A stretch of 64,000 bases of DNA from Shigella phage JK36: sequence record MK962754.1. The stretch is one strand, 5' to 3'. Numbering within the stretch: position 1 is the first letter of the stretch; each line of letters begins with the position of its first letter. Below the pieces are notes generated by a model. It saw nothing but the letters and a program-made list of their open reading frames with translations. It was not told the DNA's origin and ran no database searches. Positions 1 through 12,299 of this stretch are shown piece by piece. Made by a program: the position numbers and the translations under genes.

Positions 1-85
1 TACAAATTTCTTCTACTCTAGCATCAGAATGGTGTGTAAAAGCATTCATCAGGGATAGATAAGGTCCAGTTAAAAATGTTCTCAT
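1..85 (-). CDS. hypothetical protein, N-terminal fragment (gene runs off window start)
   Basis: ATG at 85-83 on minus strand with purine-rich RBS; frame open to position 1 (MRTFLTGPYLSLMNAF...); too short for the ORF track. Confidence 0.25.
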   Translation of the reverse strand, partial: MRTFLTGPYLSLMNAFTHHSDARVEEIC

Positions 86-2989: not shown

Positions 2990-3230
2990 CTCGGTCCCAT
3001 GATTTGGCCATTAATTCGGACATAAATTCTTCAATGCGCGTTTCTTTAGATGGACTTTCACTATTAGAGACCGCAAGTTTGTAATCTGCAATAGGACAGA
3101 ACATATCAAGGTCCATATTAAGGTCGTCTTTGATTTTTTCTTCTGACACATCTTTATCGTATGTGTACAGATAACTATCACATGATTCTGATTTAATGTA
3201 AATTGCTATACTCATCTCAAATTCCTGCAT
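2979..3230 (-). CDS. hypothetical protein (83 aa)
   Basis: ORF with ATG; start overlaps the ECR codons of upstream gene; no recognisable motif. Confidence 0.4.
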   Translation of the reverse strand: MQEFEMSIAIYIKSESCDSYLYTYDKDVSEEKIKDDLNMDLDMFCPIADYKLAVSNSESPSKETRIEEFMSELMAKSWDRDDE

Positions 3231-3709
3231 TCGGTAATAAAACGTTCAACTTCATTATTCTTGGCCTTTATCTTGTCTTTACGTTCCTGTAAACTACTTT
3301 TAACAAGATTAATAATGATGCCTACAGTACCTCCACCAATAATACCACCAATAATACTTACGATAGTAGATGCTAATAAGATAGCAATAATATCAACAAA
3401 ACCGAAAGAACTCACCTTAGTACTAAAAAACCATACCGACGGTACAAATATAATCCATCCTGTTATCCATTGGCACTTATTGAAAAACTTTTCAAGCTCA
3501 GCTTGAGTTGTTCGTATTACTTCATCGATAGGTTGATATCCATTAATGTATCTGTTCACGATAATACCTGCTGGCTGGTCGATTTTAAATTCTTGGCAAA
3601 TATGATTCACTAAGTAGGATGGACATCCTGTCCAATCTACTGAATAGTATGAAATACCTTCGTTGCCATCGTCTATATTAGACCAATATGTTTTGTTAAT
3701 CATTACCAT
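3212..3709 (-). CDS. membrane protein, 'FIxECR-tail' family member (165 aa)
   Basis: Hydrophobic segments (IIAILLASTIVSIIGGIIGGGTVGIIINLV); C-terminal tail ...NNEVERFITECRNLR shared with 4 paralogs. Confidence 0.45.
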   Translation of the reverse strand: MVMINKTYWSNIDDGNEGISYYSVDWTGCPSYLVNHICQEFKIDQPAGIIVNRYINGYQPIDEVIRTTQAELEKFFNKCQWITGWIIFVPSVWFFSTKVSSFGFVDIIAILLASTIVSIIGGIIGGGTVGIIINLVKSSLQERKDKIKAKNNEVERFITECRNLR

Positions 3710-4389
3710 CCTTCCATAGGGAATTCCAGATAAACTTGGGCATTGACACGAATTTCATTGGTAATCTTTTTAACTCGGTCTGTATTACGAGATACACGTC
3801 CGAACCAACGCCATCCGTTACTAATTGCACGAGAACCAGTGTGCCATGTTTGCCAATCAAACTGAAGAAGAGTACGATCTGGAGCTTCCCATTTCTCTAG
3901 TTCACCTTTTTCAATTTTTTCGAGGACTTCTTTGTGCCACTGGCGATAGATAAGTTCGCCATCAGGAATCTGACTGAACTCTGCAGTTCCTGTTGCAAAA
4001 TGAGTAGGACACACGTCAGCGTTAACAAGACCAAGAATATGTTCAGAATGGTAACGAGGGTTGTCATAGTCAGGTTGTCCTGCAGTAATAAAGTGTTGAC
4101 CAACTGGAATATCAGGGCGAGGAACATCGTCATGGTGGTATCCAGGAATAGCAGGATACCAACCAGGCATCAGCATATGAACCCGAGAATCAAATACAAC
4201 ATGTTGATTAGTCCAATCAATTGGGAGATTGGCAATAAAGCTACGAGTGATTGAGCCACCATTATCCCAAGCAAAACCCAAATCACAGTTAAAGAACATT
4301 GGTTCATTTTTGATTCGGTCATTTTGTACGTTATGTGCAAAACTACCTACTGCACGAGCTTGACTATTAAACACTTTAGAACTATTCAT
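3703..4389 (-). CDS. hypothetical protein (228 aa), His-rich motifs
   Basis: Long ORF in operon context; motifs PGWYPAIPGYHHDDVPRPD and HSEHILG; function unknown. Confidence 0.5.
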   Translation of the reverse strand: MNSSKVFNSQARAVGSFAHNVQNDRIKNEPMFFNCDLGFAWDNGGSITRSFIANLPIDWTNQHVVFDSRVHMLMPGWYPAIPGYHHDDVPRPDIPVGQHFITAGQPDYDNPRYHSEHILGLVNADVCPTHFATGTAEFSQIPDGELIYRQWHKEVLEKIEKGELEKWEAPDRTLLQFDWQTWHTGSRAISNGWRWFGRVSRNTDRVKKITNEIRVNAQVYLEFPMEGW

Positions 4390-4390
4390 A

Positions 4391-4696
4391 TTATTTTCCT
4401 CGGCATTCTTTAATGAAATTTTCTAGATTGGTAGATTCAATAGCTTTTTTACGAGCTTCGGCATGTTCTTCTTCAGACAATTTACATTTATAATTGACCC
4501 AGACATTATGGTCGAAACTAGTCGTGGCATATAATAACAATGCTCCAACGAATAGCAAAAACGGCGATAAGAATACAAAACCAGGAACACCATCCATATC
4601 GTACGCCTTTTGTAATACTGCAACAGAAAGAGCTGCGTAAAAAGGTGATGCAAATATTGTTAAAAGGCCAATTCGGTTGGTTTCGCCTAATTTCAT
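4391..4696 (-). CDS. small 2-TM membrane protein, 'FIxECR-tail' family (101 aa)
   Basis: Two hydrophobic helices; C-terminal ...ESTNLENFIKECRGK; ATG with GAGGAGA RBS; PeSL upstream. Confidence 0.5.
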   Translation of the reverse strand: MKLGETNRIGLLTIFASPFYAALSVAVLQKAYDMDGVPGFVFLSPFLLFVGALLLYATTSFDHNVWVNYKCKLSEEEHAEARKKAIESTNLENFIKECRGK

Positions 4697-4711
4697 AATA
4701 TTCTCCTCATG

Positions 4712-4756
4712 TTTTAATAGGACTACTATAATATAGCCCTATCAGTTTGTACACTT
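4712..4756 (-). promoter_or_regulatory. early promoter / PeSL-like cassette
   Basis: ATAGGACTACTATAATATAGCCCTATC stem-loop (GATAGG/CCTATC-type inverted repeat) with -35-like element; upstream of 4391..4696. Confidence 0.5.
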
Positions 4757-4955
4757 ATTTTGACATTTCTTCGATGTCACGACGATACCCATCACGAACT
4801 TCACGAAGAGCTTCAAGGCCACACATAGGCTCGATACCAGTAATGTGAACTTGATTAATCTGATACTCTACATCTTCTAACTGAGCGAAAACATAACGAC
4901 GTTCTGCTGCACAACCAGGTTTAGCTTTACCGAAACGTTTATTCAAAGTAGTCAT
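4755..4955 (-). CDS. hypothetical protein (66 aa)
   Basis: ORF-track start 4973 is GTG; ATG at 4955 (MTTLNKRF...) follows a PeSL cassette. Confidence 0.4.
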   Translation of the reverse strand: MTTLNKRFGKAKPGCAAERRYVFAQLEDVEYQINQVHITGIEPMCGLEALREVRDGYRRDIEEMSK

Positions 4956-4975
4956 TTTTATATCTCCATTCACTC

Positions 4976-5025
4976 ATTTGTTTTGATAGGTCTATAGTAT
5001 CAACAACTACAGACCTTGTAAACTG
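4976..5025 (-). promoter_or_regulatory. early promoter / PeSL-like cassette
   Basis: Minus GTTTAC (plus 5018-5023) + spacer + TACTATAGACC; variant of repeated cassette. Confidence 0.5.
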
Positions 5026-5035
5026 TTTTGCGAAA

Positions 5036-5992
5036 TTATTTGAAAGGTTTTACCATATGGAAATTTTGTTTGAAACGTTTGACGTAATCGTCGTGTCCTA
5101 AGCTTTGGTACATACTTACTACTTTGCTATAATTTTCCCAAGCGAACTCACGGAACCATCCTGATGTGATTGATGTACAGACCTTTTCAAGGGCCATCAT
5201 AAAACTATCACGTGGATGGATTTTAAAGTCGTTAGGAATCTGTGAACGTTCTAACGCTAGTACACATGATTCTTCGTATACGCCGGCCAATTTGACCATT
5301 TCTGGTAATGATTCGAACTTCTCGCGTGAGGTCATGACTTCAGAACCGTCTTTCATATAAAATGTATACGCTGGACGGTCTGTTAGTGCAATGGCTTCAT
5401 GAATAGTATCATGGTCATATGTATAGATGTCACCTTTAAAGAACGCACTTTTAGAAGTGTCAAGAACCGGGTGAGCATAGTTCAAGGTTTCTTTCTGGCG
5501 TTTCAGCATAATTTCAGTAAGTTCATCGTTCAGTGTAACACCTTTACCACGAAGATACTGAATATGGTTCATAGTCTTTAAAAAGAACGGATTATTTTTC
5601 TTGAAACGATGGGACATCTTAATTGCAAGACACATCTCAGGAGTTGCCCAGTAAAACCCGTTCAAACGGTCTTTAGTCAAATTTTTCTTGGCGTATTTTA
5701 AAAGGTCATAAGAAGACGTGAAATCTTCAGGAGTGAGTTCACCGACTAGTTCGCGAACGTTAGTGAGAGCCGGAACGATGTATGCTTCAAAATGAGTTTC
5801 GCGTCCATTATGGAAGCATTTGAAAACTTGGACATCAGGGTTATCTTGGTGAACATATACACCCATCATTTGATTTTTGAATGCATTCCAAGAACATTGG
5901 TCTGCAATAAAGTCCCAATCACTATTTTTAATAGCGCTAGAATCAATAAGACCGTGATAGTGAAGTGCACGAGAACCAATAACTAACATCAT
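5036..5992 (-). CDS. hypothetical protein (318 aa), possible nucleotidyltransferase-fold N-terminus
   Basis: Largest novel ORF; N-terminal IGSRAL...(17 aa)...SDWDFIAD resembles the G[GS]...D-x-D signature of pol-beta-type NTases (weak). Confidence 0.5.
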   Translation of the reverse strand: MMLVIGSRALHYHGLIDSSAIKNSDWDFIADQCSWNAFKNQMMGVYVHQDNPDVQVFKCFHNGRETHFEAYIVPALTNVRELVGELTPEDFTSSYDLLKYAKKNLTKDRLNGFYWATPEMCLAIKMSHRFKKNNPFFLKTMNHIQYLRGKGVTLNDELTEIMLKRQKETLNYAHPVLDTSKSAFFKGDIYTYDHDTIHEAIALTDRPAYTFYMKDGSEVMTSREKFESLPEMVKLAGVYEESCVLALERSQIPNDFKIHPRDSFMMALEKVCTSITSGWFREFAWENYSKVVSMYQSLGHDDYVKRFKQNFHMVKPFK

Positions 5993-6020
5993 AATATTTT
6001 CCTCGGATTAATTCATTAAC

Positions 6021-6260
6021 TTAAATTTCACGACATGCGATATTATATTCATCCCAGAGGTCATCATGTGAAGCCTCTACCAATGGAACGATTGTACCGT
6101 TTATGTCTTCATTATAAGGGCAAATTGTACAGTGCGCATCTTCGAATCGGATGCCTTTGTGTTCAGATTTTTTATAACGCATATCGAATATCTTTGCAAA
6201 CTTTTCACGAGTAATGGTTTTACCAACCACTTTGGTTCCGATACTTTCGTAATAAATCAT
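6021..6260 (-). CDS. small Cys-containing protein (79 aa)
   Basis: Start moved to ATG with GGAG RBS (MIYYESIG...); contains HCTICP motif; follows PeSL. Confidence 0.45.
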   Translation of the reverse strand: MIYYESIGTKVVGKTITREKFAKIFDMRYKKSEHKGIRFEDAHCTICPYNEDINGTIVPLVEASHDDLWDEYNIACREI

Positions 6261-6273
6261 TGTGGACTCCATT

Positions 6274-6320
6274 TGTTTTGATAGGACTACTATAACATAG
6301 CCCTATCTTGTTGTAAACTG
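6274..6320 (-). promoter_or_regulatory. early promoter / PeSL-like cassette
   Basis: Minus GTTTAC (plus 6313-6318), spacer, TATAGT, stem-loop GATAGG..CCTATC. Confidence 0.55.
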
Positions 6321-6322
6321 TT

Positions 6323-6520
6323 TTAGCAAGAATAACTAGATGATACCCAGCCTTGAACAGTGATACTATTGTGGGATAATGAGATCGCGTCCTGGAGATT
6401 CAGACCTGCGTTATCTTCAATCCATAATGTAACTTCTTCGCGTTCTTCTGTTGCAATTTGGAACAGGTTTTCCAGAGCAGCTACTGCCGTACGTACAGCA
6501 CAATCTAATTCACGAGACAT
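6323..6520 (-). CDS. small protein, 'WVxSSxxC' paralog 3 (65 aa)
   Basis: C-terminus ...QGWVSSSYSC; N-terminal helix similar to neighbours; tandem with 6530..6802 and 6812..7117. Confidence 0.5.
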   Translation of the reverse strand: MSRELDCAVRTAVAALENLFQIATEEREEVTLWIEDNAGLNLQDAISLSHNSITVQGWVSSSYSC

Positions 6521-6529
6521 ATTGTTTCC

Positions 6530-6802
6530 TTAGCAAGTGTGAGAAGATGCGACCCAACCACCAGTTTCGAGGCTCAGGTTGTAGTCGTATTGGTAAACGT
6601 CAGCCCATTCAGCATAGCCGTTTTTTGTACAACGTTCAAGATCGGCTTTAAGATGTCCGGGTGAATGATAGGTTCCACCCATACCATAAGCTGGGTACAA
6701 GTTGAATGTTGTGTTTTGTTTATCAGCAATTTCTTTGGCAGCCTCAATAGCTGCATAGATTTTTGCTACAGCTTCAGCCAGTTCGGTTTGTTCTTTAGAC
6801 AT
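6530..6802 (-). CDS. small protein, 'WVxSSxxC' paralog 2 (90 aa)
   Basis: C-terminus ...GGWVASSHTC; stop overlaps RBS of next gene. Confidence 0.5.
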   Translation of the reverse strand: MSKEQTELAEAVAKIYAAIEAAKEIADKQNTTFNLYPAYGMGGTYHSPGHLKADLERCTKNGYAEWADVYQYDYNLSLETGGWVASSHTC

Positions 6803-6811
6803 AATGATTCC

Positions 6812-7117
6812 TTAGCACAACGCAGAAGACGAAACCCAAGCACCTTCAGTAATAACGTATCCATTACCTTCACGCTTAACATCGCCGCCATTATTTTCAA
6901 TTTCATCTTTCATCCACTGGGATACGATTTCACCCTTAGGATAATAAGTACGACCGCTACCATAATCACCTACAGAAAATGATACGGCATATTGGTCTGC
7001 GATCTTTGTTGCTTCTTCTTCGATACGTTCAGCTTGATTCAGAAGTTTATAAATTGCATCTGAAGCGGATTTGGCATCATTAAACTCTGGTACTTTAATT
7101 TCAATAATCTTACTCAT
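6812..7117 (-). CDS. small protein, 'WVxSSxxC' paralog 1 (101 aa)
   Basis: C-terminus ...GAWVSSSALC; translationally coupled (ATGA overlap) to upstream membrane-protein gene. Confidence 0.5.
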   Translation of the reverse strand: MSKIIEIKVPEFNDAKSASDAIYKLLNQAERIEEEATKIADQYAVSFSVGDYGSGRTYYPKGEIVSQWMKDEIENNGGDVKREGNGYVITEGAWVSSSALC

Positions 7118-7473
7118 TTTCTACATTCCTTAATAAAGTTTTCGATTGTTTCATTTTCACGTCTAGCTAGGAGTTCATTATAACTAATCATTTGAGAAGC
7201 GTAAACCTTTTTATTTTTCTTGTTGTGGTTTATAAAATCGTAGTAAAAATAGACTACAGTACAAAATGATGCGATGGATGCAAAGGCTTGGGTGTACCGT
7301 AAGTCCTGCCATTGGTCTGTGAATCCACCAGTGTTCCCTATAAATCCTAACACAACGCCGTCAATAAGAAATCCAACTAATCCAAAGGCAAATCCCATGC
7401 CAATACTCATAATAAAAATTAGAATGTTCTCACCAAGAGAAGGCCATACGGTTAAGAGTTGAGGCTTTTGCAT
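7114..7473 (-). CDS. membrane protein, 'FIxECR-tail' family (119 aa)
   Basis: Hydrophobic helices; C-terminal ...ENETIENFIKECRK. Confidence 0.5.
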   Translation of the reverse strand: MQKPQLLTVWPSLGENILIFIMSIGMGFAFGLVGFLIDGVVLGFIGNTGGFTDQWQDLRYTQAFASIASFCTVVYFYYDFINHNKKNKKVYASQMISYNELLARRENETIENFIKECRK

Positions 7474-7877
7474 CTTATTTCCTTAACGAATTCCATAGCT
7501 TCTTCATATTCATACTTTTTAACAGCTTCATCATACTGAGCTTGGGCTTTTGCGCACTGAACTCTCCATTCTCTTACTCGAGCTCTGTGATGACGGCCTT
7601 GGTGCCAATATCCAATCCAATTAATAGGCATCAATAAAAACGGTACAATAAGTGGTGCGACGAACATTAATGAAAATGCTGCATCAGACGATATAACTTC
7701 ACTAGAATCTAAAACAGCTCCTATAATCATAAAGATTAAAAATGCTAAAGCTAAAATAGGGCCAAATAGTACTTCATTTGGGATTAATTTACGCTTATAT
7801 TCATACGCCCAGGGCTTACTTGGCATGTATAGGGTTGGCTTTGACATATTCTCTACATTCCATAATAAATTGCTCAA
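7452..7877 (-). CDS. membrane protein, divergent 'FIxECR-tail' family (141 aa; alternative start at 7847)
   Basis: Two hydrophobic helices; tail ...EEAMEFVKEIRCKSLNS; start ambiguous between 7877 and 7847. Confidence 0.45.
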   Translation of the reverse strand: MSNLLWNVENMSKPTLYMPSKPWAYEYKRKLIPNEVLFGPILALAFLIFMIIGAVLDSSEVISSDAAFSLMFVAPLIVPFLLMPINWIGYWHQGRHHRARVREWRVQCAKAQAQYDEAVKKYEYEEAMEFVKEIRCKSLNS

Positions 7878-8439
7878 GGATTAAATTGTTAGTGAAATTA
7901 GGACTAACAACCATAGTTTCATAAAGCGCATCAATAGCACTTAAAGCATCAACTCTTTTAAGCAAAGGCTTGCCTTCATACATAGTTTCAGAATCGATGA
8001 TTAACGTAAAGTAATATTTTTTATTATCGACTAGAACTTCTGTATCGATATAAAACATATTAGACCTCAGAAGCTTATCTCTAAAACCATAATAATCTTC
8101 AGAGCGTTCGCTGATATATTCCCATTCAGTGTTTAAACAACAAACAGACCATGTAGGAGCAACGAAATCAGTGAATCTAATATCATGGTCTGCAACTAGT
8201 TTAGCAATAGCTCCGATATCATGAATCATAATACCTGGGGCTAATAAAGATTTTCTGCTATGGCTAGCCGTTTTCTCGGTGGTCTCATAAGAAGACGACC
8301 AGTACCATTTACGTCCGGTTGCAACATATCGTAATGAATCAACTAAAGACGTAGGTGGATTTACCTTATCTCGGAACTCTTCGAACATTGAGTCAATATC
8401 ATTATTTTGGTTTCGCATGTTAACTCCTTTATTATCCAA
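7816..8439 (-). CDS. hypothetical protein (207 aa) with internal FIMECR motif near C-terminus
   Basis: ORF in operon; ...LEQFIMECREYVKANPIHAK near C-terminus; no obvious TM segment. Confidence 0.5.
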   Translation of the reverse strand: MDNKGVNMRNQNNDIDSMFEEFRDKVNPPTSLVDSLRYVATGRKWYWSSSYETTEKTASHSRKSLLAPGIMIHDIGAIAKLVADHDIRFTDFVAPTWSVCCLNTEWEYISERSEDYYGFRDKLLRSNMFYIDTEVLVDNKKYYFTLIIDSETMYEGKPLLKRVDALSAIDALYETMVVSPNFTNNLILEQFIMECREYVKANPIHAK

Positions 8440-8467
8440 AAGGAGGACCGGAGTCCTCCGTATTATT

Positions 8468-9061
8468 TTATTTCAAAGAGTTAATATATTCTTGTACATC
8501 AGCAGAAGTGGTTTCGACGCCGGCTGGAGTGCCATTGAACGTTTCAACACGAGTCAGAGTGTCTTCGATATCAACCTTAGTCAGTGCAGCGATTTCAATT
8601 ACATCATCGGCCGTAGAGATACCAAGGGCATTGGCTGCTCGAGTTTCACGAATGTATTCGAGTTTGATTGCCAGGTTCTGACGAGCATCGTCAAGTTCAA
8701 CCACCTTACGAGCAATTTCAATTCGCATAGCGGCATACCCGTCAGCTTTTGTATTAAGTTGTTCGGCAGTTCGACGATACAGAAGACCAAGCTTAGCATG
8801 CATAGTAACATCTTGTCCTTCAGCCAGGAGCTTACGAATTTCACGTTCCTTAGAAGCGGCTTGCTTGTTCTTTTCATTAACAAGTTCGCGAATACGTTTT
8901 TCTTCATTAATAGATTTAACAGAAGCCGTTTTTAGTTCTTTGATTTGTGTAATCAACTTATCTGCGGCTGCGTTATACTGTTCTTCGACAGTCAGATTTT
9001 TAGCCATAGCAGTACCCAGTTTAGTGCGGATGAATTCAACAAGTTTCTTCAGTGTGTTCAT
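8468..9061 (-). CDS. coiled-coil protein (197 aa), PspA/IM30-like heptad pattern (tentative)
   Basis: ORF-track start is TTG; ATG at 9061 with AAAGG RBS; long charged alpha-helical sequence. Confidence 0.45.
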
Positions 9062-10256: not shown

Positions 10257-10721
10257 TTATTTAATTTGTTTAGCAGACCAGATACGGTCTTTAATAAGTT
10301 TTTGGATATCTTCAACATACTCAAGGCTATGAGCGTGAGGATTATCTTTGAAGCTATGTGCTCGTGCCAGTTTCTGGCCTTCTGTTTTGATTACTAAAAG
10401 CTCTTTAAGAATTGCTTCATACTTAGAAATAATTCCTTTGGCGATATTTTTTTCTTGAGCTGCTTTAGGGTCTGTTTTTGGCGCAGGTGCTTTACCTGTA
10501 GCTTTCTGGAACAATTCACCTGATGCAGCTAGGCTTTTAAAAACTCGGCTAACAGTATTAGCATTAGTAAAACCTTCGGCTTTAAAATCTCTAATAAAAC
10601 GGAAACGTTCTTCATCAGAGGCGTCTTTGTAAGAATATTTACCTGCTTGAATTGCTGCAATCGCAGCGGCTTTTACATCTGAACTAGATTGTTCAGTCAA
10701 AAATTCAGCGTATGATTTCAT
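10257..10721 (-). CDS. internal-protein-like capsid-targeted protein (154 aa)
   Basis: N-terminus MKSYAEFLTE resembles CTS; followed by own terminator. Confidence 0.5.
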   Translation of the reverse strand: MKSYAEFLTEQSSSDVKAAAIAAIQAGKYSYKDASDEERFRFIRDFKAEGFTNANTVSRVFKSLAASGELFQKATGKAPAPKTDPKAAQEKNIAKGIISKYEAILKELLVIKTEGQKLARAHSFKDNPHAHSLEYVEDIQKLIKDRIWSAKQIK

Positions 10722-11468: not shown

Positions 11469-11544
11469 TGGTCGAGACAGTAGGGATCGAACCTACGACC
11501 TAGGACTTAGAAGGTCCTTGCTCTTCCTTCTGAGCTATGCCTCG
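11469..11544 (-). tRNA. tRNA-Arg (anticodon TCT)
   Basis: Hand-folded cloverleaf on minus strand: acceptor CGAGGCA/TGTCTCG, T-loop GGTTCGATCC, anticodon loop CTTCTAA, CCA encoded. Confidence 0.8.
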
Positions 11545-11548
11545 TATT

Positions 11549-11623
11549 TGGCGGACGTGATAGGATTCGAACCTATAACCAATCGCTTAACAGGCGATCG
11601 CTCTGCCATTGAGCTACACATCC
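11549..11623 (-). tRNA. tRNA-Asn (anticodon GTT)
   Basis: Acceptor GGATGTG/CACGTCC, T-loop GGTTCGAATCC, anticodon loop CTGTTAA, CCA encoded; not in T4's set. Confidence 0.75.
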
Positions 11624-11627
11624 AAAT

Positions 11628-11714
11628 TGGTGGGGAGTGATGGAGTCGAACCACCCGAGTCGCAATGACAATGGATTTACAGTCCACACCGCTACCTCTA
11701 CGGGATAACTCCCC
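11628..11714 (-). tRNA. tRNA-Tyr (anticodon GTA), long variable arm
   Basis: Acceptor GGGGAGT/ACTCCCC, anticodon loop CTGTAAA, long variable arm, CCA encoded; not in T4's set. Confidence 0.75.
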
Positions 11715-11726
11715 TAATTCATAATT

Positions 11727-11801
11727 TGGTGGCCCTGGGTGGAATTGAACCACCATCTGGCGATTATGAGTCGCTTGCTTGAACCTTCCAGCTACAGGGC
11801 C
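11727..11801 (-). tRNA. tRNA with anticodon CAT (Met, or Ile2 if lysidinylated)
   Basis: Acceptor GGCCCTG/CAGGGCC, T-arm GGTGGTTCAATTCCACC, anticodon loop CTCATAA. Confidence 0.7.
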
Positions 11802-11802
11802 T

Positions 11803-11878
11803 TGGTGCTGATTGACGGAATCGAACCGCCGACCTTCTCATTACAAGTGAGTTGCTCTACCTACTGAGCTAAATCAGC
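11803..11878 (-). tRNA. tRNA-Thr (anticodon TGT)
   Basis: Acceptor GCTGATT/AATCAGC, T-loop GGTTCGATTCC, anticodon loop CTTGTAA. Confidence 0.8.
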
Positions 11879-11883
11879 AAAAC

Positions 11884-11973
11884 TGGCGGAGGCGATAGGA
11901 TTTGAACCTATGAGTCGCCGGAGCGACTGCCGGTTTTCAAGACCGGTGCATTAAACCACTCTGCCACGCCTCC
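11884..11973 (-). tRNA. tRNA-Ser (anticodon TGA), long variable arm
   Basis: Acceptor GGAGGCG/CGCCTCC, anticodon loop CTTGAAA, long variable arm, CCA encoded. Confidence 0.8.
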
Positions 11974-11975
11974 AG

Positions 11976-12049
11976 TCTCCATACAAGGATTTGAACCTTG
12001 GACCTCCTGATCCCAAATCAGGCGCTCTACCAAACTGAGCTACACGGAG
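11976..12049 (-). tRNA. tRNA-Pro (anticodon TGG), CCA not encoded
   Basis: Acceptor CTCCGTG/TATGGAG, anticodon loop TTTGGGA; 3' end followed by CTG not CCA. Confidence 0.75.
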
Positions 12050-12059
12050 TAAATTAAAT

Positions 12060-12133
<74 letters not shown>

Positions 12134-12138
12134 AAATT

Positions 12139-12225
12139 TGGTGCGAGAAGTGGGACTCGAACCCACAAGGAAATCATTCCGCAGCATTTTAAGTGCTGTG
12201 CCTTTACCAATTTGGCCATTCTCGC
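12139..12225 (-). tRNA. tRNA-Leu (anticodon TAA), long variable arm
   Basis: Acceptor GCGAGAA/TTCTCGC, anticodon loop CTTAAAA, long variable arm. Confidence 0.8.
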
Positions 12226-12226
12226 G

Positions 12227-12299
12227 CTGGGAATAAAGGACTCGAACCTTTGCATCCTGGAATCAAAATCCAGTGCCTTACCAACTTGGCTAATTCCCA
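12227..12299 (-). tRNA. tRNA-Gln (anticodon TTG), CCA not encoded; 1 nt from tRNA-Leu
   Basis: Acceptor TGGGAAT/ATTCCCA, T-arm AAGGTTCGAGTCCTTT, anticodon loop TTTTGAT. Confidence 0.75.

Follow-up and report, generated by a model that had tools for sequence, protein, structure and literature searches.

Several small genes in a stretch of Shigella phage JK36 (64,000 nucleotides of record MK962754.1, called the window below) encode proteins that end in nearly the same residues, of the form F-I-x-E-C-R, and these residues are encoded exactly where the next gene begins. Such an arrangement raises the question of whether the shared tail is a property of the proteins or of the DNA. The comparison with related loci (about 45 in total) places the conservation in the protein. 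The tail is carried by soluble and membrane proteins encoded between the genes e.6 and nudE of T4-type phages, and it may be a short helix by which these proteins dock onto a common partner.

Window positions 3000-8700 are 98.6% identical to Escherichia phage vB_EcoM_MM02 and likewise match more than 120 other Mosigvirus (RB69-like, T4-type) genomes. Judged by this similarity, the five tail-bearing genes are e.2, RB69ORF133c (133c below), e.3, e.4, and e.5 of a Mosigvirus genome. The genes and their motif codons, with lengths in amino acids (aa), are as follows:

3212..3709, minus strand: e.2-like gene, 165 aa by the longest open reading frame (ORF), 163 aa as annotated in relatives; phrog_2203
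3224..3241, minus strand: e.2-like motif codons F-I-T-E-C-R (TTT ATT ACC GAA TGC AGG), part of repeat D3
4391..4696, minus strand: RB69ORF133c homologue, 101 aa, two hydrophobic helices, tail LENFIKECRGK at the stop; phrog_9798
4400..4417, minus strand: 133c motif codons F-I-K-E-C-R (TTC ATT AAA GAA TGC CGA)
7114..7473, minus strand: e.3, 119 aa, membrane protein, tail IENFIKECRK at the stop; phrog_2330
7120..7137, minus strand: e.3 motif codons F-I-K-E-C-R (TTT ATT AAG GAA TGT AGA)
7452..7847, minus strand: e.4, 131 aa, or 124 aa from the next ATG, two transmembrane helices; phrog_2604
7473..7490, minus strand: e.4 relaxed motif codons F-V-K-E-I-R
7816..8418, minus strand: e.5, 200 aa, no hydrophobic segment (soluble), motif 11 residues before the stop; phrog_2607
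7852..7869, minus strand: e.5 motif codons F-I-M-E-C-R (TTT ATT ATG GAA TGT AGA)

All five tails are present in the minus-strand sequence exactly as an earlier note on this DNA had quoted them, and the synonymous differences it pointed to are correct, with TTT ATT AAG GAA TGT AGA in e.3 against TTC ATT AAA GAA TGC CGA in 133c. The upper coordinates it gave for e.4 (7877) and e.5 (8439) belong to TTG-extended ORFs; annotated relatives start at internal ATGs. The e.2-like protein is composed of an N-terminal soluble domain, a hydrophobic region at about residues 79-135, and a basic tail, and it terminates in VERFITECRNLR. The e.5 protein terminates in LEQFIMECREYVKANPIHAK, and e.4 in AMEFVKEIRCKSLNS, with the relaxed motif MEFVKEIRCKSLNS. 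The coding regions of e.4 and e.3 overlap by 22 nt (window 7452-7473), and those of e.5 and e.4 likewise overlap (7816-7847). The Cys is seemingly shifted in e.4 because the end of this gene is an alternative-frame reading of the e.3 start, in which the terminal R-C-K-S-L-N-S corresponds to M-Q-K-P-Q-L-L of e.3 (ATG-CAA-AAG-CC).

The matches to the PHROGs listed above span the entire proteins (E values of 7e-56 for e.2, 4.5e-50 for e.3, 3.5e-64 for e.4, 1.5e-95 for e.5, and 4e-68 for 133c), and the orthology is also backed by synteny with annotated RB69-type genomes. The annotations call members of all five orthologue groups hypothetical proteins or predicted membrane proteins. Neither these proteins nor their neighbors gave a significant match to Pfam-A or NCBIfam, and the shared tail is not recorded by any annotation or Pfam-A/NCBIfam model in the copies searched; PF26876 is listed on one e.5 homologue entry. 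An e.3 homologue is present in 694 phage records. Some GenBank records (e.g., OP870147.1, F31_0135) name e.3 a sulfurtransferase, for which Pfam, NCBIfam, and PHROGs offer no support.

Within the window, a loose regular expression for the tail gave 7 matches in 940 six-frame segments. Five of them are these genes, all with the match at most 11 residues from the C-terminus. The back-translated DNA pattern is not over-represented (5 matches vs 2.9 expected), and four of its five matches lie in frame at gene 3′ ends within 4.7 kb. The signal of the tail resides in frame and position, not in the count of the DNA pattern. An 83-aa ORF at 6021-6272 (minus strand) with the end EYNIACREI was considered as a sixth member and rejected; its homologues end in YCYEI (CIP9) or YVAEI (JS10).

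To follow the tail outside of the window, the corresponding regions of T4, VR20 (Gaprivervirus), JS10 (Dhakavirus), CIP9 (Kanagawavirus), and BYEP01 (Tequatrovirus) were read, together with 34 e.6-anchored IMG/VR loci, Aeromonas phages SW69-9 and Aszh-1, and the Pseudotevenviruses leB and IME-CF2. Orthologues were detected independently of the tail, by removing the last 22 residues from the queries and iterating these as hidden Markov models over 40 loci. The strict core of the motif was kept by 22 of the 23 e.2 matches, all 19 e.3 matches, and 19 of the 20 e.5 matches. The exceptions are the truncated e.2 of T4 and one split, frameshifted e.5, and the detached 3′ fragments of these genes still encode the tail. 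The T4 e.2 protein has 102 aa vs 162-197 aa in other phages and lacks the tail; the lost C-terminus (NLNNFITECRKLK) persists as a separate 36-codon ORF between e.2 and nudE, abutting the latter (T4 locus L005, 1073-1183, minus strand). The reference T4 e.2 is probably a frameshifted allele.

The conservation of the tail can also be followed within a single family. In a 13-member alignment of e.5 proteins, with identities of 14-47%, the sole invariant columns are M1, N96, F184, and C188, and R189 is kept in more than 90% of the sequences. The e.5 family is very small, with 27 clusters in a library of 1.84 billion proteins, and all 22 fetched representatives end in F[IV]xxC[RK]. At the DNA level, all synonymous codons are in use: among 96 distinct DNA contexts, Cys is encoded by TGC in 50 and TGT in 46, Arg by CGN in 45 and AGR in 45, and Phe by TTT in 69 and TTC in 27. 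The CGN and AGR codons differ at the first base. The information content shows a 3-nt periodicity, with about 0.1-0.4 bit at the third positions of the non-fixed codons.

The gene located downstream of the tail differs between phages. In T4, e.3 precedes e.2; in the window, VR20, and JS10, it precedes a gene of the small-protein WVSSSxxC type. Downstream of e.2, some phages have a 79-aa ORF and others nudE. The downstream neighbor of e.5 is e.4, or e.3 in JS10, or a 67-nt intergenic promoter region in Aeromonas phage SW69-9. In the last case, the e.5-like gene keeps the motif before the promoter-bearing spacer, without any overlapping downstream start, and in leB and IME-CF2 the motif stands 28 residues before the stop. 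The earlier note had proposed protein-level selection and had named a translation-initiation or recombination cassette as the alternative, to be checked by asking whether the motif persists when the downstream gene differs. It does persist, and it remains with the upstream protein. As the motif accompanies its protein even where another gene, or none, lies downstream, the cassette explanation is rejected, and protein-level selection is borne out by the tail-less orthologue searches, the codon usage, the invariant columns of e.5, and the independence from the downstream gene.

The closeness of the motif to the next gene is nevertheless real. The motif DNA overlaps or abuts the downstream start in all five window genes, as the earlier note had observed. 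The AGG-AAT stretch in the e.2-like motif is the Shine-Dalgarno (SD) sequence for the downstream 79-aa ORF, and AAGGA within the e.3 motif doubles as the SD of the next gene. Across the loci, 67 of 121 contexts (55%) have their predicted SD within the motif, and the others have it elsewhere. The SDs within the motif occur in two registers, with the x-x codons read as AAGGA/GAGGA or the Arg codon as AGG-A (offsets of +6..8 or +15..17). Codons of the motif or directly behind it (AAG-GAA, GAG-GAA, AGG-AAn) are thus often reused as the SD of the next gene, a secondary dual-coding effect which arises because the genes are tightly packed. The DNA likeness noted earlier is explained by the protein motif together with this opportunistic reuse of its codons. 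This provides a clean example of a coding motif serving as the SD of the following gene, and such reuse can mislead readings made at the DNA level.

The stronger claim, that the likeness of the tails is a by-product of the downstream translation-initiation region (a U-rich enhancer, SD, spacer, and ATG) read in the upstream frame, can be drawn from the same observations: the motifs touch the next start, K-E and E-E (AAGGAA, GAGGAA) are the commonest x-x pairs, and just over half of the contexts hold the SD inside the motif. The register, however, is not fixed: the SD may stand at either offset or past the end of the motif, and between 7 and 90 nt separate the Cys codon from the next ATG. The SD does not encode F, C, and R, for which all synonymous codons are in use, and tightly coupled neighbors such as the WVSSSxxC family do without the motif. 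The retention of the motif without an overlapping gene in SW69-9, leB, and IME-CF2 refutes this explanation as the primary cause, and it is given almost no probability here. Hardly any weight is due, either, to the idea that the tail is a nascent-chain ribosome-arrest peptide, coupling membrane insertion of the upstream protein to downstream translation in the manner of SecM or MifM. A conserved C-terminus on two-transmembrane proteins, placed over the SD of the next gene, would suit such a role. The same motif, however, is carried by e.5, which is soluble and has it 9-28 residues from the stop, by other soluble families, and by genes that precede an intergenic spacer; its distance to the stop (0-28 residues) or to the SD is not fixed. 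To our knowledge, a Cys-containing tail helix of this type bears no resemblance to known arrest motifs.

The recombination form of the DNA explanation requires separate attention. The region is of the plastic kind in which T4-type phages carry mobile PeSL (promoter/stem-loop) cassettes (PMC2839356, PMC4122927), and elements matching these are found in the window:

about 4705-4745, 4975-5029, and 6270-6324, coding strand: three repeated PeSL-like cassettes (repeat families D1, D6, D13, D18)

Each combines a T4 early-promoter-like GTTTAC...TATAGT/TATAAT with an overlapping GATAGGGCTA/TAGTCCTATC stem-loop, and such elements are annotated as terminators in phage SA35RD. The tail resembles them in being a repeated element at gene boundaries of the same kind of plastic region. 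The PeSLs, however, are non-coding and conserved as DNA or structure, whereas the tail is coding, conserved in amino acids, and synonymously divergent; when examined as a PeSL-type cassette, the motif DNA showed no promoter and no stem-loop, and its third codon positions are nearly unconstrained. The conserved stretch might instead be a DNA homology patch at the gene boundaries, which serves the modular shuffling of ORF cassettes in this hyperplastic region. The setting among PeSL-like cassettes fits this idea, the e.3 and e.5 motif copies are identical at 20 of 22 nt (91%, repeat D3), and in some phages the match is confined to the last ~30 residues of e.3. Other copies (133c vs e.3) differ at nearly every synonymous site, the conservation follows the 3-nt periodicity, and orthologues keep the motif while the neighbors change. 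Even the longest shared runs have neither the length nor the constancy that a dedicated recombination site would need, and we consider a homology patch highly improbable. The phages with the short e.3 match (94-100% identity) are KY703222.1 (phiC120), PV660449.1 (LF82-5), and PP400782.1 (FL31); this pattern is suggestive of e.3 alleles in which truncation or recombination has spared the tail.

With the tail established as a protein motif, its form and range can be described. The refined consensus is φ-[D/E/N]-x-F-[I/V]-x-x-C-R, in which φ is hydrophobic, followed by 0-28 mostly basic residues. The Glu of the E-C-R ending described earlier falls outside the core, where the x-x pair varies (KE, TE, EE, KG, KH, KY, KQ, NL, NS, DD, RM, and others). 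A position-specific scoring matrix (PSSM) adds the relaxed variants W-[IV]-K-G-C-R-K, F-I-E-S-A-R-K, and the e.4-type F-[IVL]-K-E-[SIVM]-R; e.4 carries the form F-[IVL]-K-E-x-R. In the Ceceduovirus motif of e.5 type, the Arg is replaced (F-I-N-Y-C-I). The full-length e.6-anchored loci of Tevenvirinae type each hold 2-5 coding-strand motif ORFs downstream of e.6, and almost all of them 3-5, when ORFs ending in F-[IV]-x-x-C-[RK] plus 0-15 residues are counted; one locus stops at the end of e.6. Across 30 loci, 557 coding-strand segments end at most 6.4 kb downstream of e.6, and 108 of them hold F[IVL]xxC[RK] among their last 30 residues, vs 2 of 1068 elsewhere. This enrichment is extreme, with a p-value that is only indicative, as the loci are mutually related. 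The motif is restricted to the stretch just downstream of e.6, between e.6 and nudE. Distant genera hold the e.6/e.5 pair only, and the membrane carriers are an expansion in the enterobacterial Tevenvirinae.

The earlier note had regarded the carriers as one paralogous family of small membrane proteins, and neither part of this description is supported in that form. By BLAST, the 138 motif ORFs collected form at least 15 clusters, some of membrane proteins and others of soluble ones. These include the e.5-type soluble proteins of 180-316 aa, at least four other soluble families of 72-116 aa, the e.2 type with its N-terminal domain and hydrophobic region, and several families of the two-transmembrane type. 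In the window, the presence of two transmembrane helices is clear for 133c and e.4, and e.2 and e.3 show one strong and one weak segment in what is a crude hydropathy scan. When 16 families were compared by hhalign with the motif removed, every pair remained at or below 31% probability, except for one trivial 17-column N-terminal match. With the motif included, the probabilities rose to 63-95%, often with just 13-28 tail columns aligned. Since the similarity between families vanishes once the tail is cut, the tail is the only demonstrably shared element, and a single family is not demonstrable. It is plausible that the two e.5 clusters, the three e.3-type clusters, and e.3 with e.4 (74% over 109 columns) are related. 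The carriers may be very old paralogues, or they may have acquired a 3′ module repeatedly; the data fit both.

The mechanism that we favor starts from the shape of the tail, which would be a short amphipathic alpha-helix module at the C-terminus of otherwise dissimilar accessory proteins. On an alpha-helix, the positions φ(-3), F(0), I/V(+1), and C(+4) lie inside an arc of 100 degrees and would thus share one face; basic residues follow them in the sequence. The helical hydrophobic moment exceeds the beta moment in all five tails, and AlphaFold2 (AF2) predicts e.5 residues 178-194 to be helical at low confidence. The C-terminal segments contain 8-11 Lys and Arg residues, and the short loops that join the hydrophobic helices are either acidic or without charge. 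Because of this distribution of charges, the positive-inside rule predicts the tails of the membrane carriers to be cytoplasmic; e.5 has no signal peptide and no transmembrane segment. The e.4-type proteins have S, I, V, M, or A in place of the Cys, an exchange more in keeping with packing than with catalysis or metal binding. A common helix of this type, held in the cytoplasm by carriers encoded between e.6 and nudE, would tie e.5, e.2, 133c, e.3, e.4, and their counterparts in other genera to a shared partner or complex. That the tail is a cytoplasmic docking or assembly helix, linking the soluble e.5 and the variable small inner-membrane proteins to one partner or complex, is given an even chance here.

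The tails might also bind each other. Here, they would be the homo- or hetero-oligomerization helix of an old, fast-diverging paralogue family, which forms a membrane complex of e.2, e.3, e.4, 133c, and e.5. The hydrophobic face is heptad-like, the genes stand in tandem with a copy number that varies between genera, and 133c weakly matches the C-terminal half of the e.2 PHROG (phrog_2203, E 0.0019). Full-length alignments with the tail included lead in the same direction, with the e.4-e.3 figure given above and 90% for the three e.3-type families. This inter-family similarity, however, is gone once the tail is removed, and Biquartavirus and Pseudotevenvirus loci encode a single motif protein beside e.6. 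Because of this single protein, hetero-oligomerization is not the ancestral role, although homo-oligomerization could be. Overall, self-association is the main rival of the docking helix, although rather unlikely.

Another possibility is that the tail acts as a C-terminal degron or protection signal, recognized by a protease or adaptor of the host or the phage, and thus gives the early accessory proteins a common lifetime. The C-terminal placement, the basic extreme C-terminus, and the unrelated carrier proteins would all be expected from such a signal. Known C-terminal degrons, however, are read from the free end, and here 0-28 residues separate the motif from the C-terminus. We know of no established resemblance to ClpX, Lon, or Tsp tags, and a degron is judged very unlikely.

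Under the docking reading, the favored candidate for the partner would be the product of the gene located just upstream, a conserved protein with a predicted helical hairpin:

8468..9061, minus strand: e.6, 197 aa, predicted long alpha-helical hairpin, candidate partner by inference only

The e.6 gene is conserved in 1109 phage records. In every locus examined, down to 31-35% e.6 identity (Pseudotevenvirus), it is directly followed by a motif-bearing gene of e.5 type, so that the pair extends to distant Straboviridae. The T4-like Klebsiella phage Roth26, which lacks e.6, has no e.5 and no coding-strand motif ORF in the 146 of 175 kb scanned; the motif was matched in 2 of 1570 segments, both antisense, which is the chance level. 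That e.6 is the partner of the tail is considered possible but unlikely.

Several points weigh against the docking helix and its proposed partner. First, the AF2 model of e.5 has a predicted local distance difference test (pLDDT) score of 55, with a shallow multiple sequence alignment: the homologue searches returned 3 clusters with a single sequence as the query and 10 with the 13-sequence alignment. A fold search with this model was meaningless, with template-modeling scores of at most 0.27. Second, the topology derives from the crude hydropathy scan, in which e.2 and e.3 show their second hydrophobic helix only weakly. Third, a Cys that is strictly conserved in most families could mean chemistry, such as metal binding or covalent modification, and not simple packing. 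Fourth, the link to e.6 consists of synteny and co-occurrence, which are explained as well by the shared inheritance of the block, and it was contrasted with one e.6-negative genome, Roth26, scanned outside 29 kb of structural genes.

The predicted structure of e.6 suggests a more specific version of the docking idea. Its AF2 model (pLDDT 76) shows helices at residues 25-80 and 86-145 with pLDDT of about 85-96, followed by short helices, and fits the layout of ESCRT-III-type proteins, in which a long alpha1-alpha2/3 hairpin precedes shorter helices; the tip of the e.6 hairpin holds an invariant sequence. A Foldseek search of the PDB with this model returned Vipp1/PspA as the top 8 matches, with a probability of 1.0 but E values of only 6e-3 to 2e-2. 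A Pfam scan of 43 e.6 homologues gave no match, including the PspA_IM30 and Snf7 families, hhalign of e.6 against E. coli PspA (an approximate sequence) gave 1.2% probability, and an e.6 profile search of the PDB found no PspA/Vipp1-type match. In the Psp system, PspA/Vipp1 works with the small membrane partners PspB and PspC. By analogy only, the phage locus is similar, with a hairpin protein of ~200 aa, e.6, next to small inner-membrane proteins with predicted cytoplasmic C-terminal helices. It is conceivable, though distinctly doubtful, that e.6 is a PspA/Vipp1-like membrane scaffold of the ESCRT-III superfamily and that the F-[IV]-x-x-C-R tails are its adaptors, with e.5 as the ancestral partner and diversifying inner-membrane proteins that recruit or regulate the scaffold. 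If so, T4-type phages would carry their own membrane-remodeling or maintenance module with a modular adaptor code. A related idea, that the tails mimic the C-terminal helix of e.6 (ending in EYINSLK), was tried and is unsupported; a 72-tail PSSM scores it at 1.6 bits, about rank 200 of 2450.

A shared peptide motif on unlike proteins is a known kind of arrangement. The C-terminal peptides that dock onto a hub, such as the clamp-binding peptides by which T4 gp43, gp33, and gp55 bind gp45, or the C-terminal tail of the single-stranded DNA-binding protein, are likewise short conserved sequences on unrelated bodies, and their conservation is centered on a few hydrophobic residues. The tails described here differ from them in sequence, in their many membrane carriers, and in the conserved Cys-Arg pair. 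A second comparison is with the class II holins, which have two transmembrane helices, an N-in/C-in topology, and a charged C-terminal tail; the T4 holin is T. The size of the membrane carriers, their two hydrophobic helices, the basic C-terminus predicted to be cytoplasmic, and the closeness to the endolysin gene e resemble this class, but the same tail also occurs on soluble proteins. By hydropathy and the positive-inside rule, a holin-type topology is compatible with 133c and e.4 and less so with e.2 and e.3, and no window protein matched the holin families in Pfam or PHROGs.

The third comparison is with the capsid-targeting sequence of the T4 internal proteins, the N-terminal MKTYQEFIAE, which is cleaved after Glu by the prohead protease. 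Its amphipathic E-F-I-x-E core resembles tails such as EEFITECR. The tail as a capsid-targeting sequence was rejected, as it is C-terminal, varies at the Glu position (E, G, H, Y, Q, L, S, D, M), conserves Cys-Arg, and has many membrane carriers. Separately, five window ORFs do start with M-K-[TMS]-Y-x-E-F-[IL]-x-E (258-587, 613-927, 991-1251, 1730-2011, and 10257-10721, minus strand); this we take to be the T4 capsid-targeting sequence, and the ORFs presumably form an internal head protein family flanking denV/e and the tRNA region.

The motif itself, the set of its carriers, and the e.6/e.5 linkage appear undescribed; no paper on the motif, the function of the e.x genes, or phage PspA-like proteins was found in the open-access literature, which is a weak negative. 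The e.2-e.6 genes of T4 were never assigned a function and lie in a hyperplastic region of fast-evolving accessory genes. One tail on at least 15 sequence-unrelated families, as their most strongly conserved part, indicates a functional link among these ORFans, as opposed to a random assortment. The tail is a direct experimental handle as well, a bait peptide with three residues for mutation. Should the partner be e.6 or a host hub, the tail would mark a new module of phage-host or phage-membrane interaction and provide a rule by which the clients of this module could be recognized in further genomes.

All genes of interest are encoded on the minus strand, and their order of transcription was inferred via annotated relatives. 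It leads from e.6 through e.5, e.4, and e.3 to three small genes of the WVSSSxxC type, several other ORFs, a 318-aa DUF7275/7277 protein, and further ORFs, then to 133c, a conserved 228-aa protein, and the e.2-like gene, and finally to the 79-aa ORF, nudE, e (lysozyme), and denV. The 228-aa protein (3703-4389, minus strand) ends in YLEFPMEGW and in Aeromonas phage Aszh-1 sits directly upstream of e.6. The DUF7277+DUF7275 protein (5036-5992, minus strand) is well conserved and embedded in the same cluster. The WVSSSxxC genes between e.3 and 133c (6323-6520, 6530-6802, and 6812-7117, minus strand) encode small soluble proteins that end in W-[VIY]-x-S-S-x-x-C at the stop (GAWVSSSALC, GGWVASSHTC, QGWVSSSYSC; phrog_899). 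This family counts three paralogues in the window and five each in VR20 and CIP9 (L004, 6300-7566; L006, 4972-6595), and none in the e.5-nudE stretch of T4. The window also holds 10 tRNA genes at 11469-12299 (minus strand), for Arg-UCU, Asn, Tyr, Met, Thr, Ser, Pro, Gly, Leu, and Gln; tRNA-Arg(UCU) decodes AGA and AGG, the codons of about half of the motif arginines.

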